The position numbers and the translations under genes were made by a program. From Campylobacteraceae bacterium (GTDB lineage Bacteria; Campylobacterota; Campylobacteria; Campylobacterales; JALSKU01): a stretch of 36,703 nucleotides of DNA. Below, piece after piece: positions 2,150 through 7,470 of this stretch. The notes beneath the pieces are model-generated. The model was not told the origin of the DNA and made no database searches. It was given only the letters and a program-made list of their open reading frames with translations. The stretch is from positions 1 to 36,703 of the forward strand of contig WFMT01000186.1 of assembly GCA_015488975.1 (NCBI GenBank), read 5' to 3'. Position 1 is the first letter of the stretch. Every line of letters starts with the position of its first letter.

Positions 2150-3322
2150 ATGACAAGAAATAAAATAGGAAATATAATCACTTGGATTTTAATTATCGGT
2201 TTTGGAGCATGGGGAATTCCAGGTTTTATAGATAGATTAGTAAATGGTCATATTCATACAAACTATGGTTCATACATTCCTTGGGGTCTTTGGATTTCAT
2301 CTTATATTTGGCTTATAGGTTTATCAGCAGGAGCTTTAATGATATCTGTTATGACTTATGTTTTCCACATAAAAGCCGTTAAAACCGTTGGGAAAATGGC
2401 TTTATTAGTAGCCATTGCAACTTTAGTCGGTGCTATGATTTCAGTTGGAATTGATCTCGGGCATCCATTAAGAGCTTTTAGTCTTATACTTGATCCAAAT
2501 CTCCACTCAATGATGGGTTGGATGGCTGTTTTATACAGTGCGTACTTTGTAACTCTTTGTATAGAATTATATTTTGCCATTAGGCACGAACAAGTTACAG
2601 GAGAAAAACGAAAAACTATTAAAAATATTCTTATAGCACTTGGTATTTGGAGCGTTCCTTTGGCATTTGCATTTCACGGAGGTGTCGGTGGTGTTTTCTC
2701 AAACCTGATATCAAAACCTTATTGGTATGGACCAATGTTGCCGGTTGTATTTTTAGCCGGAGCATTTTTAAGCGGCGGTGCACTTTTTTGTACAGTTGCA
2801 TATATTTGGAGGCCGAAACTTTCAAAAGATGATTTTGTAAAAATGATGATATTTTTGGGAAAAACAACCTTGGCACTTTTGATTTTAGATGAAATTTTAG
2901 AATTATCAGAAGTATATATGGGTACTTTTTATTCTCAATTTGGAGAAGGACACATTTGGTCACAAATTTTATTTGGACATTATTGGTATACATTTTGGAT
3001 AGTTCACTTATTAATCGGTGTAGTAATTCCAGGAATTTTACTAATATTCAAATCAAAATCACCAGGTGCTATCGCACTTGCCGGGCTACTCATAGCAGGT
3101 AGTTTTTTAGCAGTAAGATTAAATATTGTAATTCCCGGTATGATTGAACCGGAAATAAAAGGTATCGCTGGTGCTTGGGTGAATAGCAGACTAACATTTA
3201 GCTATCTGCCATCAATTATGGAATGGCAAGTAGTGTCATTTATCATAGCTGTTGTCATGTTAGTATTTATGATAGGTAAAGCAATTTTACCAATATATCA
3301 AACAGCAGGAGAGGAAAAATGA
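2150..3322 (+). CDS. ttrC: NrfD/PsrC-family integral membrane quinol-interacting anchor subunit (TtrC-like).
   Basis: 390-aa highly hydrophobic ORF with multiple TM helices. SD AGGAGGA lies just upstream. Positioned between the FeS and catalytic subunits. Its stop overlaps the ttrA start (ATGA at 3319-3322). Confidence 0.7.
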   Translation: MTRNKIGNIITWILIIGFGAWGIPGFIDRLVNGHIHTNYGSYIPWGLWISSYIWLIGLSAGALMISVMTYVFHIKAVKTVGKMALLVAIATLVGAMISVGIDLGHPLRAFSLILDPNLHSMMGWMAVLYSAYFVTLCIELYFAIRHEQVTGEKRKTIKNILIALGIWSVPLAFAFHGGVGGVFSNLISKPYWYGPMLPVVFLAGAFLSGGALFCTVAYIWRPKLSKDDFVKMMIFLGKTTLALLILDEILELSEVYMGTFYSQFGEGHIWSQILFGHYWYTFWIVHLLIGVVIPGILLIFKSKSPGAIALAGLLIAGSFLAVRLNIVIPGMIEPEIKGIAGAWVNSRLTFSYLPSIMEWQVVSFIIAVVMLVFMIGKAILPIYQTAGEEK

Positions 3323-6300
3323 AAAGTAAAAATATAGAAAACAAAACAATAAACAGAAGAGCTTTTTTAAAGACTTCTGCTTTACTGGGTGGGTCTGTTG
3401 CATGTTTGAATGCCATTGAAACGGTAAAAACTTCTGGTTTTGGAAGAAGTCATATCGACTATCCTTTAAATGATGCTGAAAATGTTATTTATTCTGTTTG
3501 TCTCCAGTGTCATACGGATTGTCCTATCAAAGTTAAGATTGAAGATGGAGTTGCAGTTAAGATTGATGGCAATCCCTACTCAATTCAAAACTTAAATTCC
3601 CCGATTCCAACATCAACTGATGTTCAAGTCGGAGCGAAGATCGATGCCGGAATCTGCCCTAAAGGACAAGCTGGTATCCAAACCATGTATGATCCCTACA
3701 GAGTAGTAAAAGTTTTAAAAAGAGACGGCAAAAGAGGTGAAAACAAATGGAAAGTTATACCATTTGATCAAGCTGTCACAGAAGTAGTCGAAGGTGGTAA
3801 ACTTTTTGCCAATGTCCCAGGTGAAGAAAACAGAGTTGTAGAAGGACTTCGACAAGTGAGAGCTTTAAAAGATCCTAAAATAGCAAAAGAGATGGCAGAA
3901 GATGCCATGAATGTTGGAAAAGGCAAAATGAGCCTTAGTGCTTTCAAAGCAAAACATAAAGATAATTTACATTATTTGATAAATCCAGACCAACCCGACC
4001 ATGGTCCAAAAAATAACCAGTGCCTGATGCTTGCTGGAAGAATGGAACACGGAAGAAAAGAGTTTGCAAAAAGATGGCAACAAGCTGCTTATGGCAGTAT
4101 AAATTTTATGGAACACACAACAGTTTGCGAACAGTCTCACCATATAGCATACAAGCAAGTTACAAGTCAATATCTTGGTGGCGGAAAATGGAAACCTGCC
4201 AGTGAACAGTTAAAGCCTGATTTTAGAAATTCAAGATTTGTAATATATTTTGGAACAGGTGCAGTTGAGGCAAATTTTGGACCTCCTGTAATGGCAAATC
4301 TTATGACAAATGCCATTATAAAAGATGGATACAAGATAGCTGTCGTAGATCCGAGATTTTCCAAAACAGCTGCTAAAGCCTGGAAATGGGTTCCGGTCCG
4401 TCCAGGTGGCGACGCTGCTCTTATCTATGGTATGATAAGATGGATGTTTGAAAATAATAGGATAAGAAAATCTTTCTTGGAAAATTCAAATGTGGCAGCT
4501 GCTCATAAAAATAAAGAACTTAGTTGGACAAGTGCAACACACTTGATAAAATTTGATAAAGATGGTCCGGGTAAAAAACTAAGAGCAAGCGATCTTGGAA
4601 TGGGAAGCAGTGATGAGTTTGTAACTACTAAAAACGGTAAACCTATAGCATTCAATACTAATGATAAACTAAATCCTGTTGTTGGAGACCTCTTTTTCTC
4701 AGGTGAGTTAAATGGCATAAAAGTTAAGTCTGAACTACAGATGGTTAAAGAGTATGCTATGAGTAAATCCATACAAGAGTGGGCAAAGGAAGCTGGGGTA
4801 AGCGCTAAAGAGATTATTGAATTAGTTAGAGAATATACCAAATATGAAAAATACGGAAGACAAGTCGGTGCTGAGATGTATAGGGGTGTTGTCCAGCATA
4901 CAAACGGATATTTTAACGGTATGGCTGTAATATATTTAAATATGTTAGTTGGAAACATTGATTATAACGGCGGGTTAATGTCCGGTGGCGGTCACTATCA
5001 CGAAGATGGAAGTAAAGGTGGTCCATTTAATCTTAAAAAAGATGCATTCCCTGGAAAAACCAAGTCATTTGGTCATAAAATAACCAGAGAAGGCTCATAC
5101 TATGAAAATAGTACGGATTTTCAAAAAAATGGCTATCCTGCTAAAAGACCTTGGTTTCCTCATACTGGAAATGTTTATCAAGAGGCAATCCCTTCTTTTG
5201 ATGATGCCTATCCATACGGAATCAAGATTTTAATGACTGTTATGGGTACTCCTTTATTGTCAAATCCGGCAGCACATATGTCAATGGAGACAATACTTGA
5301 TTTTAAGAAGACTCCTCTTTATGTTGCAAATGATGTAACTATTGGTGAAAGTAGCATGTATGCCGATTATATTTTTCCTGATTATGCAATTTGGGAAAGA
5401 TGGGGGACACCACACACTACGGTAGTGGCAGTTACAAAAATGTCAAAAATGAGACAACCTACAATTGAGCCTTTAACCGAGACTGTTCAAATATTTGGTG
5501 AGAAACAACATGCAGGCTATGAATCAATGTTATTGGCATTTGCTGAAAAGTTAAAGCTTCCTGGATATGGGGATAATGTTTTTGAAGGTAAAAAACCACT
5601 TAAAAGAGTGGAAGATTGGTTTCTTAAAATGGCTGCAAATATGGCTGCAGGAGATCACAAAGGTGATGATTTACCTGAAGCTGATGATAAAGAGATGGCC
5701 ATATTTAAAAAAGCAAGAAGACATATGACTCCGGCCACATTTGATATAGCAAAATGGGAAAAAGCCTGTATAGATTCAAATGGCAAGAATTGGTTTAAAA
5801 AGGTAGTCTATTTGCTAAATCGTGGTGTTAGAGGAGAAGATTATTCAAATTATACTAAAAATGTAGAAAATAGTGTTTATATTTTACATAAATTTGGAAA
5901 ACAGTTTAACTTTTACAGTGAGCCAGTCGGAACCACTAGACACTCTTTTACAGGTAAGAAATTTAGTGGTATAAGCAAGTATCATCCTGCGGTTGATTAT
6001 GGTGGAAAACCAGTAACTGGAAGTTCTGCTTATCCACTTCGTCTTATAACCTATAAGCCAATAACAGGTGGCCAGTCAAGAACTCAAGCTGTTGATTATT
6101 GGTTGCAAGCTGTAATGCCTGAAAATACTATTGTGCTAAACAGTCAAACAGCACTTAGCATGGGCTTCAAAAACGGAGATAAAGCAAAAATTGTTTCTGC
6201 TGATAATCCAAGCGGAAATTGGGATTTGGGAAATGGTAAAACTAAACCAATGATAGGTAAAGTTGAAGTTGTCGAGGGACTAAGACCTGGAGTTATAAAT

Positions 6301-6510
6301 GTTTCCTGGAGTTTTGGTCACTGGGCTTATGGTGCCAGAGATGTTATGATCGATGGTAAAGTTATAAAAGGTGAGAAAGCAAGAGAAAGCGGACTATGTC
6401 CAAATGCGTCAATGAAAGTTGATACGGCTTTAAAAAATTCTACGATTGAAGATTTAGTAGGCGGTTCAGCAGTTTTCTATGATTCATTTGTAGGGCTAGT
6501 TAAAGCTTAG
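3319..6510 (+). CDS. ttrA: Molybdopterin (bis-MGD) oxidoreductase catalytic subunit, tetrathionate reductase TtrA-like, Tat-exported.
   Basis: 1063 aa. Tat motif NRRAFLKTSALLGGSVA. N-terminal FS0 motif CLQCHTDC...CPKG. Several blocks resemble my memory of Salmonella TtrA: GKRGENKWKVIPFDQAVTEVVEGGKLF, GMIRWMFENN, SWTSATHL. Size and B-C-A gene order are typical of Ttr rather than Psr/Phs. Confidence 0.7.
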   Translation: MKSKNIENKTINRRAFLKTSALLGGSVACLNAIETVKTSGFGRSHIDYPLNDAENVIYSVCLQCHTDCPIKVKIEDGVAVKIDGNPYSIQNLNSPIPTSTDVQVGAKIDAGICPKGQAGIQTMYDPYRVVKVLKRDGKRGENKWKVIPFDQAVTEVVEGGKLFANVPGEENRVVEGLRQVRALKDPKIAKEMAEDAMNVGKGKMSLSAFKAKHKDNLHYLINPDQPDHGPKNNQCLMLAGRMEHGRKEFAKRWQQAAYGSINFMEHTTVCEQSHHIAYKQVTSQYLGGGKWKPASEQLKPDFRNSRFVIYFGTGAVEANFGPPVMANLMTNAIIKDGYKIAVVDPRFSKTAAKAWKWVPVRPGGDAALIYGMIRWMFENNRIRKSFLENSNVAAAHKNKELSWTSATHLIKFDKDGPGKKLRASDLGMGSSDEFVTTKNGKPIAFNTNDKLNPVVGDLFFSGELNGIKVKSELQMVKEYAMSKSIQEWAKEAGVSAKEIIELVREYTKYEKYGRQVGAEMYRGVVQHTNGYFNGMAVIYLNMLVGNIDYNGGLMSGGGHYHEDGSKGGPFNLKKDAFPGKTKSFGHKITREGSYYENSTDFQKNGYPAKRPWFPHTGNVYQEAIPSFDDAYPYGIKILMTVMGTPLLSNPAAHMSMETILDFKKTPLYVANDVTIGESSMYADYIFPDYAIWERWGTPHTTVVAVTKMSKMRQPTIEPLTETVQIFGEKQHAGYESMLLAFAEKLKLPGYGDNVFEGKKPLKRVEDWFLKMAANMAAGDHKGDDLPEADDKEMAIFKKARRHMTPATFDIAKWEKACIDSNGKNWFKKVVYLLNRGVRGEDYSNYTKNVENSVYILHKFGKQFNFYSEPVGTTRHSFTGKKFSGISKYHPAVDYGGKPVTGSSAYPLRLITYKPITGGQSRTQAVDYWLQAVMPENTIVLNSQTALSMGFKNGDKAKIVSADNPSGNWDLGNGKTKPMIGKVEVVEGLRPGVINVSWSFGHWAYGARDVMIDGKVIKGEKARESGLCPNASMKVDTALKNSTIEDLVGGSAVFYDSFVGLVKA

Positions 6511-6519
6511 ATTTTTTCA

Positions 6520-6560
6520 GTGCCTGCCAAAAGTTATCCTTCTTTTCTTTTGGCAGGCAC
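6520..6560 (+). other. Perfect 14-bp stem-loop directly after the ttrA stop (possible processing, stabiliser or partial terminator element).
   Basis: GTGCCTGCCAAAAG (6520-6533), a 13-nt loop, then CTTTTGGCAGGCAC (6547-6560). No U-tract follows on either strand. A TATAAT lies at 6563-6568. Confidence 0.5.
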
Positions 6561-6581: not shown

Positions 6582-6872
6582 ATGTTAAAAGATTTTATGA
6601 AAAAGATTTTTATAATACTTTTTTTGATAAGTTTGAATTCTATCTTTGCTAAAGAGTTATCTATTCCTAAAATTATTAAATCAAGTATTATAAAACAGTA
6701 TAAAAATAAAAAAATCTCTTTTATTTCAATTAAAAAATTAAAAACCGGAAAATATCTTGTAAAAGTAAAATTTAACCAAGAGCATGATAAGGTGATAATA
6801 GATAAAAAAGGAAAAATCTACAGCATTGTCAATGATTTGTCCTTTAGCGATAATGTCGGAAACGGGTGTTGA
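6582..6872 (+). CDS. Small secreted PepSY-like protein with a single C-terminal cysteine (tail ...DNVGNGC), paralog 1.
   Basis: 96 aa. Signal peptide ending SIFA/KE. Pattern IP..I.SSIIKQY...KY.V.V....DKVII.KKGKI.SI fits one PepSY-like module. The only Cys is the last residue. About 50% identical to the next ORF. Confidence 0.65.
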   Translation: MLKDFMKKIFIILFLISLNSIFAKELSIPKIIKSSIIKQYKNKKISFISIKKLKTGKYLVKVKFNQEHDKVIIDKKGKIYSIVNDLSFSDNVGNGC

Positions 6873-6893
6873 TAAAATTTTGAGGAGTTTGTT

Positions 6894-7184
6894 GTGTTTA
6901 AAAGATTTATAAATATTTTTATTTTAACTATTTTACTGATTAGCTCAAGTGCTTTGTTGGCAAAAGAGAATATTCAAGTACCTCCTGTTATAATATCAAG
7001 TATTATAAAACAGTATGGACAAGCCAAAATAAAAATTTTGTCTATAAAGAAGATTAAATCAAAAAAATACCAAGTCATTGTAAAAACAGATACCGGAAAA
7101 GATAAAGTTATTATCACAAAAAAAGGAAAAATTTTAAGTATTAGTGATTATCTTGTTGGAATGGAGCCATCAGGTGGCTGCTAG
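6894..7184 (+). CDS. Small secreted PepSY-like protein with a single C-terminal cysteine (tail ...MEPSGGC), paralog 2.
   Basis: 96 aa. GTG start preceded by GAGGAG. Signal peptide ending ALLA/KE. Same length and architecture as 6582-6872. The only Cys is the terminal residue. Confidence 0.65.
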   Translation: MFKRFINIFILTILLISSSALLAKENIQVPPVIISSIIKQYGQAKIKILSIKKIKSKKYQVIVKTDTGKDKVIITKKGKILSISDYLVGMEPSGGC

Positions 7185-7470
7185 TAGAGTCTTTTTCATA
7201 AAGTCAATATTTAAAATTTCTTTTACTTTAGTTGTGCTTTGTGCACCCTCTTTTTCCTCAATCATTTCCGTTTGCAAGAATTGCCATGGGAAAAATTTTG
7301 AAAAAAGAGCATTGGGTAGGTCCGAGATAGTAAGAAATATGAGCAAACAAGAAATTATAAATGCATTAGAAAGATTTAAAAAATCAAAATCAAATTCTAT
7401 AATGAGAGGATTTGCTTCTAGACTAAGCGATAAACAAATCGAACAGATAGGCAAGGTAATAGGTAAATAG
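7174..7470 (+). CDS. Small monohaem c-type cytochrome (c553-like); start uncertain (GTG 7174 preferred, the ORF track gives 7144).
   Basis: Single CKNCH haem-binding motif with a downstream Met candidate ligand (NSIMRG). GGAG at 7163-7166 lies 7 nt before the in-frame GTG at 7174. That start gives a signal-peptide-like N-terminus, MAASRVFFIKSIFKISFTLVVLCAPSFSS. It overlaps the end of the preceding gene. Confidence 0.6.
   Translation: MAASRVFFIKSIFKISFTLVVLCAPSFSSIISVCKNCHGKNFEKRALGRSEIVRNMSKQEIINALERFKKSKSNSIMRGFASRLSDKQIEQIGKVIGK

Follow-up and report, generated by a model that had tools for sequence, protein, structure and literature searches.

Secreted mini-proteins with a chain-terminal cysteine linked to a Ttr-like, probably arsenic-type molybdoenzyme in Campylobacterota

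Two mini-proteins and a small family with a terminal cysteine

The stretch of DNA analysed here, hereafter the window, is a contig of 36,703 nucleotides from a Campylobacteraceae bacterium (WFMT01000186.1), and it encodes two small secreted proteins in tandem on the forward strand, directly after an operon for a Ttr-like molybdenum (Mo) enzyme. The first open reading frame (ORF1, positions 6582-6872, ATG start) and the second (ORF2, 6894-7184, GTG start with GAGGAG 7 nt upstream) each specify 96 residues made up of a signal peptide, a PepSY_like module and a short tail, which is VNDLSFSDNVGNGC in ORF1 (14 residues, 6828-6869) and SDYLVGMEPSGGC in ORF2 (13 residues, 7143-7181). The N-terminal signal-like segments read ..SIFA/KE and ..ALLA/KE, respectively, and the sole cysteine of each protein is its very last residue (..NVGNGC in ORF1, ..EPSGGC in ORF2). 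The original prediction, made from the sequence alone, had described two back-to-back 96-residue secreted paralogs of about 50% identity, with cleavable signal segments and exactly one cysteine at the C-terminal end. The coordinates and both features are confirmed in the two reading frames, and the measured identity over the full length is 47%. The start of ORF1 could alternatively lie at its second methionine (6597), as in the relative from L001 (loci L001-L024 are those that we reached through the mini-protein). The stop contexts are TGT TGA TAA in ORF1 and TGC TAG TAG in ORF2; selenocysteine read-through was considered and rejected, as homologues use TAA, TAG or TGA interchangeably and show no sign of recoding.

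The arm proteins are an unannotated family. No Pfam or NCBIfam model matches ORF1 or ORF2, and the names found in public databases are either 'hypothetical' or an automatic 'protein-disulfide isomerase', the latter being the Joint Genome Institute (JGI) name for the relative P0001. Word-indexed and exhaustive family searches returned a very small set, with 20 representatives among 1.84 billion clusters at 50% and 67 sequences in a collection clustered at 90%. All 74 family members end in cysteine, and in 71 of them this is the only cysteine outside the signal peptide. Since only 2.4% of 4716 short ORFs from control loci have a cysteine at the end, the conservation of the terminal residue lies far beyond chance. 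In an alignment of 26 sequences spanning the diversity of the family the only invariant columns are G78, I80, I83 and the terminal C96. Selection on the terminal cysteine, previously argued from its retention in two diverged paralogs, is therefore strongly supported by a Gly-Cys end that is kept in 74 of 74 members.

Family members fall into two paralog types, with type I proteins ending DYLxGME(P/A)(S/T)GGC and type II proteins ending DDLSxxDEVEEGC. ORF2 belongs to type I and ORF1 is a type-II-like variant ending GNGC. The length of the arm is fixed within each type: the tail after the last strand measures 13 residues in 38/38 type I proteins and 14 residues in 31/31 type II proteins. Both types also carry a charge dipole, their net charges being -3.1 in the tail and +8.7 in the module for type I, and -7.0 and +5.6, respectively, for type II. 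In P0033 (159 residues; L021:10001-10480 and L022:7379-7858) a type I module that has lost its Cys tail is naturally fused to a complete type II protein; the related isolate genome (L020) retains the type II gene alone. The single mini-protein gene of L001 resembles a recombinant that joins an N-terminus like that of ORF1 to a C-terminus like that of ORF2.

The AlphaFold2 model of ORF2 (predicted local distance difference test score, pLDDT, 79) consists of the signal helix, one helix and four strands, followed by a low-confidence tail from residue 86. The flexibility that had been anticipated for the tail agrees with its pLDDT of about 55, next to a confidently modelled module. The original assignment of this module as PepSY-like is supported as a remote relationship, both by its helix and four strands and by the reach of the family profile, which extends to PF11396 PepSY_like proteins at E-values of 1e-6 to 6e-4 (2.7e-4 for P0082). 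These proteins are multi-repeat, have no Cys tail and form the weak tail of the profile search. Pfam itself is silent, with no PF11396 match above the gathering score for ORF1 or ORF2 and an E-value of only 0.087 for the relative P0019. Foldseek gave no significant match of the ORF2 model to the PDB; the top matches of the single module were DsbG/DsbC-type N-terminal dimerisation domains (E 0.01-0.07, not significant) and BLIP-like/DUF2874 proteins. The P0033 fusion (AlphaFold2 pLDDT 85.6) finds its best matches among two-repeat DUF2874/BLIP-like proteins at E 1.4e-3, and template modelling scores for the fold matches to proteins of this group (4k61, 4fr9, 4hbr) are low, at 0.34-0.48. MAFFT placed all single-module sequences onto the second P0033 module, and as the alignment thus covered that module only, the inter-module packing of the model is unreliable and was not used. 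The DUF2874 (PF11396) proteins appear to have the same helix-plus-four-strand module, in two or more copies, but they lack the Cys-tipped tail and any link to a Mo enzyme.

The tail had also been likened to the swinging arm of SoxY, which is periplasmic, holds its cargo on one cysteine that follows Gly-Gly in a flexible C-terminal arm (GGCGG) and serves redox enzymes; SoxYZ comprises two related small subunits. The resemblance lies in a single Gly-preceded cysteine on a C-terminal arm and in a pair of proteins that recalls the tandem paralogs here. SoxY is, by contrast, a beta-sandwich with an internal GGCGG cysteine rather than a PepSY_like module with a last-residue cysteine, and in our case both paralogs carry the cysteine and stand with Fer4, NrfD, Mo subunit and cytochrome c genes rather than with sox genes or SoxZ. 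Neither SoxY, SoxZ nor Sud was matched by Pfam, NCBIfam (SoxY at E-values up to 10), PDB profile search or Foldseek. Homology to SoxY or Sud is thus rejected, the proposed kinship with SoxY falls away, and 'swinging arm' can be used as an analogy only.

An exclusive association with one subclade of molybdoenzymes

Upstream of the mini-proteins, the forward strand of the window encodes a B subunit with a four-cluster ferredoxin (1184-2140; twin-arginine translocation (TAT) signal SRREFLEK), a C subunit of the NrfD/PsrC type that forms the membrane quinol anchor (2150-3322; Pfam NrfD 5e-30) and a catalytic A subunit of 1063 residues (3319-6510; TAT motif NRRAFLK), a TAT-exported Mo-bis(pyranopterin guanosine dinucleotide) (Mo-bisPGD) protein of the Ttr-like clade. 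In the window and in every one of the loci L001-L024 a mini-protein gene lies directly 3' of an A subunit of 1057-1063 residues. The operon in those loci consists of Fer4 (about 318 residues), NrfD (about 390 residues) and Mo subunit genes, and genes for a PhnD-fold binding protein, histidine kinase and response regulator diverge from it. In the commonest arrangement A is followed by type I, type II and cytochrome c; the paralogs are swapped in the window, L005 and L026, only type I is kept in L001, L011 and L015-L017, and only type II in L020. L023 comes from an unrelated genome (41% GC, with a HisKA_3/GerE regulator pair), and there a deeply divergent member (..PPEMGC) follows an A subunit of 63% identity.

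As L001-L024 had been selected through the mini-protein, we also approached the association from the enzyme side, through 80 metagenome loci fetched with the C-terminal third of A and ranging from 99% to 44% identity to it. A family member lies 3' of A in 10 of the 11 loci at 58% identity or above and in none of the 69 at 57% or below. The sole exception among the close relatives is L030, whose A is 76% identical and is followed directly by cytochrome c (2586-2858), with no mini-protein. The linkage is exclusive, and it is restricted to a single subclade of the enzyme. All loci found by way of the mini-protein show the proposed link to the adjacent Mo enzyme, and the reverse approach from the enzyme bears it out. 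The description of the genes as lying immediately downstream of ttrBCA was right as to position and BCA gene order, although the enzyme itself, as discussed below, is probably no tetrathionate reductase.

A further gene, for a mono-haem cytochrome c (CKNCH; 7174-7470, forward strand, weak matches to Pfam Cytochrome_CBB3), follows ORF2. Its start is uncertain: the mechanical ORF begins at 7144, and the likely GTG start at 7174 overlaps the last codons of ORF2, an overlap that suggests translational coupling. Cytochrome c is conserved downstream in 13 of 19 loci and absent in L001, L020, L021 and L023, where the mini-protein is nevertheless kept. The suggestion that the mini-proteins work with this cytochrome is weakened accordingly, and cytochrome c as an obligatory partner is rejected. 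One of these four loci, L020, is from a cultured isolate, Sulfurospirillum sp. 1612 (MCCC 1K08293; PMC11406935), which carries the operon with one type II gene at about 211-217 kb of CP140614.

Several individual loci deserve mention. L016 and L017 are two contigs of the same metagenome-assembled genome (M10_metabat2_scaf2bin.049), each with an A-mini-protein pair, followed in one copy by cytochrome c, arsR and arsB and in the other by a PstS-family protein, a methyl-accepting chemotaxis protein and cytochrome c; they represent either two copies of the operon or strain heterogeneity. Three loci without a mini-protein have a carboxymuconolactone-decarboxylase (CMD/AhpD-like, PF02627) protein of roughly 103-108 residues after A (L038:5402-5713, L039:5404-5715, L064:5364-5690), in each case lacking a signal peptide. 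On a high-GC metagenome contig a 90-residue ORF (L051:5256-5528, forward strand) begins 71 nt after an A subunit of 50% identity. It looks unrelated to the family: a signal peptide leads into low-complexity sequence and then an acidic tail with the end ...DDGEEEEDFGC at the stop codon, there is no PepSY module, and neither hidden Markov models nor Pfam gave a match. This ORF may be an analogous Cys-tipped arm, although it is a single case and could be spurious. It suggests that the acidic Gly-Cys end is the functional element.

Between the stop codon of A and the first mini-protein gene lies an intercistronic RNA hairpin (6520-6560, forward strand) with a perfect 14-bp stem and no T-run (minimum free energy -26.9 kcal/mol, z = -4.7). 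It occurs at the same place in 10 loci, these being the window, L001, L003, L005, L006, L008, L010, L012, L018 and L020 (all of the Campylobacterota loci examined), and 9 of its 12 pairs are kept through double, compensatory changes; in L023 this position is taken by a different hairpin. An intrinsic terminator is rejected, given the missing T-run and the lack of a terminator call. The hairpin may instead act in mRNA processing or stability and uncouple the expression of the enzyme from that of the mini-proteins. The remainder of the window consists of housekeeping genes and gave no matches in Rfam.

Arsenic-type signatures of the enzyme and its sensor

The original prediction took the enzyme for a tetrathionate reductase, and its architecture conforms to that clade: the window operon has the BCA gene order with TAT signals on both A and B, which are the criteria for the Ttr clade (PMC2500031, PMC12949373). 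A crude hydropathy scan of the C subunit gave overlapping segments, so that its helix number is unreliable for the nine-helix criterion of Ttr. The profile scores fall far short of the Ttr equivalogs. A reaches 456 bits against a cutoff of 1750 for the TtrA equivalog NF011567, and the corresponding values are 178 against 416 for TtrB and 35 against 314 for TtrC; the NCBIfam matches of the B subunit (TtrB/DsrO/ArrB-like) are all below their cutoffs. The clade has been treated as TtrA/SrdA/archaeal arsenate reductase (PMC7331816), and some Ttr homologues are reported to be As(V) reductases that a Gly-Arg (GR) motif is said to set apart from bona fide Ttr, the arginine corresponding to R165 of ArrA (PMC12949373).

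The A subunit of the window carries this motif as LMLAGRMEHGR (residues 236-246), which aligns to LLRGRYSH of ArrA, and its Cys ligand motif EHTTVCEQSHH (Cys270) aligns to SHSSVCAEAH of ArrA in an alignment with ArrA and PsrA. Both motifs, Gly-Arg and the H-x-x-V-C of arsenic enzymes, are conserved in 21/21 related A subunits. As a negative control we used a ttrRS-ttrBCA locus annotated by the Prokaryotic Genome Annotation Pipeline on an E. coli plasmid (NZ_CP025944.3), whose TtrA differs in its ligand motif and reads T-N where the window has GR. A homologue on a Citrobacter arsenatis plasmid, encoded back-to-back with arsRDABC, has the GR motif and EHTNICELSHH. Identity of the window A is 36.0% to this arsenic-island enzyme as against 29.5% to the true TtrA.

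The sensor gives a concordant picture. Divergent from the operon, the reverse strand encodes a periplasmic PhnD-fold protein (175-1041; Pfam Phosphonate-bd) of the ArrX/AioX arsenic-oxyanion subfamily, whose best PDB matches are ArrX (3.6e-36) and AioX (1.2e-30), with PhnD at about 1e-16. All seven of the AioX pocket residues defined in PMC5908839, including the arsenite-binding Cys106, are present in the window sensor, whereas the periplasmic domain of TtrS has none of the seven. AioX holds arsenite by the single Cys106 with a Kd of 177 nM, and arsenite was the one ligand bound by AioX and ArxX from a set of tested oxyanions with tetrathionate and thiosulfate among them (PMC5908839). The sensor is a separate solute-binding protein (SBP), and its partner regulators in the relatives are a histidine kinase and a sigma54 response regulator; those of the window lie beyond its edge, judging by L001, L003 and L020.

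Arsenic genes are neighbours in some loci only, namely aioXSR-aioBA in L003 (AioA 1002 bits) and arsR-arsB in L016 (ArsB 584 bits). The aioXSR-aioBA locus is complete (L003:13041-20029, and also in L004) and is separated by about 3 kb from the Ttr-like operon upstream of it; the SBP paralog that it encodes shows 44% identity and has Val at AioX lid position 56, where the operon SBPs have Thr-Thr.

Taken on its sequence signatures, the enzyme is probably a Ttr-like, arsenic-type enzyme and not a tetrathionate reductase. Arsenate reductase appears to be its most likely function, with arsenite oxidase or a reaction on another thiophilic oxyanion possible. Ttr-like respiratory arsenate reductases are known in Anaeromyxobacter sp. 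PSR-1 as well as in Pyrobaculum aerophilum (PMC12949373, PMC11462812). They share with the window enzyme the BCA architecture, a TtrA-like catalytic subunit and the GR motif, but the distant homologues examined have no mini-protein, and the window A is only some 36% identical to the enterobacterial arsenic-island homologue. Conversely, the bona fide TtrRS-TtrBCA system of the Salmonella type resembles the window in its BCA order, its TAT signals on A and B, its NrfD-type anchor and a PhnD-fold sensory domain; it differs in an A of 29.5% identity, in T-N for G-R, in the pocket residues of TtrS and in having no mini-protein after ttrA. The tetrathionate premise is thus undermined, and since both enzyme and sensor are arsenic-type, the rationale that tetrathionate would load the terminal cysteine as an S-thiosulfonate loses its footing; arsenic-thiol chemistry is at least as likely.

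Two cysteines of the A subunit were considered in relation to the mini-proteins. A Mo ligand supplied in trans by the mini-protein cysteine is rejected, A having its own ligand cysteine in the ArrA-like motif. Cys817 (KWEKACID; about 5767-5769), found in all Campylobacterota-type A subunits and absent from 55/55 distant ones, looked at first like a clade-specific disulfide partner (11/12 versus 0/55); this role is not supported, and the residue is a lineage marker, because it is present in the mini-less L030 and is Leu in the mini-positive L023 type. A third residue, Cys29 (about 3403-3405), lies near the end of the TAT signal (GGSVAC), and with a canonical lipobox (LAGC) nearby in some distant homologues, some lineages may make A as a TAT lipoprotein.

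Models for the cysteine-tipped arm

We tentatively propose, as a model that we hold to be plausible but somewhat short of probable, that ORF1 and ORF2 act as a thiol-arm shuttle for the Ttr-like arsenic-type enzyme. We infer that the basic PepSY_like module would dock on the enzyme, with two modules probably docking together; such pairing is suggested by relatives with two repeats, by the tandem occurrence of the paralogs and by the P0033 fusion, which has one arm only. The acidic, Gly-rich arm would then enter the cationic substrate funnel of A with its chain end leading, as only a chain terminus with small residues could plumb a narrow funnel, and the fixed length of the arm would correspond to a fixed distance from dock to target. 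In this way the thiolate of the terminal cysteine, together with the free carboxylate, would be placed near the Mo site, where the thiol could form a transient covalent adduct with a thiophilic substrate or product and shuttle this cargo in or out.

We favour an As-S bond to As(III), as at Cys106 of AioX, because of the arsenic-type signatures, the thiophilicity of As(III) and the single-cysteine precedent for As(III) binding in AioX. The arm would serve in substrate capture and delivery or in product removal, working in the manner of Sud for Psr or of SoxY in Sox. The carrier arm of the original prediction thus survives as what we still consider the best mechanistic model, without the SoxY kinship and the tetrathionate premise, and with sulfur as a cargo demoted to the main rival.

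Such a carrier may be of a kind already known, by analogy with Sud. Sud of Wolinella succinogenes is a small periplasmic single-cysteine transferase of polysulfide sulfur, with a rhodanese fold and an active-site loop cysteine, which binds its substrate covalently and delivers it to Psr. The partner enzymes belong to the same Psr/Ttr/Arr superclade, but the mini-proteins show no rhodanese match in Pfam or in fold, and the cargo here would probably be arsenic rather than polysulfide. To our knowledge, no such accessory protein has been described for the Mo-bisPGD respiratory enzymes of the Arr/Ttr/Psr group other than Sud for polysulfide reductase. AioX and ArsD likewise hold As(III) through cysteine sulfur (a single one, Cys106, in AioX; PMC5908839), although inside folded pockets rather than at the end of a flexible arm, and without homology to the mini-proteins.

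A literature search for a periplasmic arsenite chaperone with a C-terminal cysteine found nothing relevant. As far as our searches show, the combination of a PepSY_like fold, a chain-terminal cysteine on a fixed arm and an exclusive linkage to a Ttr-like arsenic-type enzyme is undescribed. The more far-reaching version, in which these proteins found a new class of periplasmic chain-end carriers that bear arsenic, and not sulfur alone, as a covalent protein-S-As adduct at the Gly-Cys-COOH tip of an acidic arm of fixed length threaded into a molybdoenzyme funnel, seems to us improbable; were it true, respiration would have its first arsenic shuttle borne on a protein. By analogy with the cleavage of S-S bonds by Ttr and Psr, the true substrate could even be a protein-bound (thio)arsenate ester whose S-As bond is cleaved.

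A number of points weigh against the arsenic shuttle. For a fast respiratory enzyme, stoichiometric binding of arsenite seems a poor match, and As(OH)3, being neutral, should escape from the funnel unaided. L030 has a close relative of the enzyme and no mini-protein, so that the mini-protein is dispensable in at least one lineage, and the distant arsenic-type homologues, on the C. arsenatis plasmid and in the 69 metagenome loci, have none either. Among the cysteines of A we found no clade-specific partner that co-varies with the mini-protein, Cys817 tracking lineage instead. The use of the GR motif as a substrate marker derives from the alignment of one paper (PMC12949373). Finally, a secreted fusion of a rhodanese with a SoxH-related metallo-beta-lactamase follows cytochrome c in the same direction in three loci (L003:10893-12209, L004:5822-7138 and, apparently truncated, L018:10915-11724), and this only sulfur-type neighbour points to sulfur.

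That fusion belongs with the evidence for a sulfur carrier, in which the terminal cysteine would present sulfane sulfur or an S-thiosulfonate (as persulfide, polysulfide or -S-SO3-) to a Mo enzyme that cleaves the S-S bond, as for Sud or SoxY. The enzyme sits in the Psr/Phs/Ttr/Arr superclade, whose members typically cleave S-S bonds (PMC2500031, PMC7331816), it has the Ttr architecture, with genes in the order BCA and with A and B both carrying TAT signals, its hosts are vent sulfur bacteria (PMC11406935), and every feature of the arm would suit a sulfur cargo equally well. We nonetheless regard a sulfur carrier as unlikely: the signatures of enzyme and sensor are arsenic-type and not Ttr-type when set against the bona fide ttrRS-ttrBCA control, AioX and ArxX bound arsenite and neither tetrathionate nor thiosulfate (PMC5908839), similarity to SoxY, SoxZ or Sud is missing in both sequence and fold, and the rhodanese neighbour occurs in a minority of loci only.

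The fixed length and strong negative charge of the arm could also mimic an anionic substrate, such that the Cys-tipped tail would act as a pseudo-substrate plug or protector, filling the anion funnel, ligating or shielding Mo and so inhibiting the enzyme reversibly or protecting it (for example against sulfide or oxygen) until substrate displaces it. The chain-terminal position would suit insertion into a narrow funnel, and the conserved hairpin between the A and mini-protein genes could set a defined stoichiometry. Two diverged paralogs with tail charges of -3 and -7 are hard to explain by such a plug, the mini-protein is missing in L030 and in all distant homologues, and a precedent within the DMSO reductase family is not known to us; we consider a plug distinctly unlikely.

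More doubtful still is a thiol-redox helper, in which dimerised modules of the DsbC/DsbG kind would bring together two arms that form a reversible inter-chain disulfide or mixed disulfides and keep the enzyme, cytochrome c or other periplasmic thiols free of As(III) or sulfur adducts. The non-significant top fold matches to DsbG/DsbC-type dimerisation domains (E 0.01-0.07), the automatic JGI name of P0001, the tandem paralogs and the natural two-module fusion are all in keeping with it, but the P0033 fusion has one arm and several genomes have one paralog, there is neither a thioredoxin domain nor a CxxC motif, the operon encodes no dedicated reductant and the presence of Cys817 in A is not coupled to that of the mini-protein. 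Least likely, and in our view very improbable, is a metal- or cofactor-binding or structural subunit whose cysteine and carboxylate chelate a metal, ligate the haem of cytochrome c or tether the complex without any substrate chemistry; for this an acidic tail with a thiolate is a plausible cation site, cytochrome c is usually downstream and a cation diffusion facilitator transporter neighbours the L010 operon, but the mini-protein stays in the four loci without cytochrome c and the neighbours other than B-C-A differ among loci.

If the arm is dedicated to one subclade of molybdoenzymes, either the substrate may reach or leave some of these enzymes bound to a protein, or the vent habitats, sulfidic and rich in arsenic, may make a thiol partner necessary to them. 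As a cultured isolate, Sulfurospirillum sp. 1612, carries the operon, the question is directly testable. Moreover, the 'Ttr' annotations in vent Campylobacterota, including that isolate (PMC11406935), probably refer to arsenic-type enzymes, a re-reading that would change metabolic reconstructions of these bacteria.

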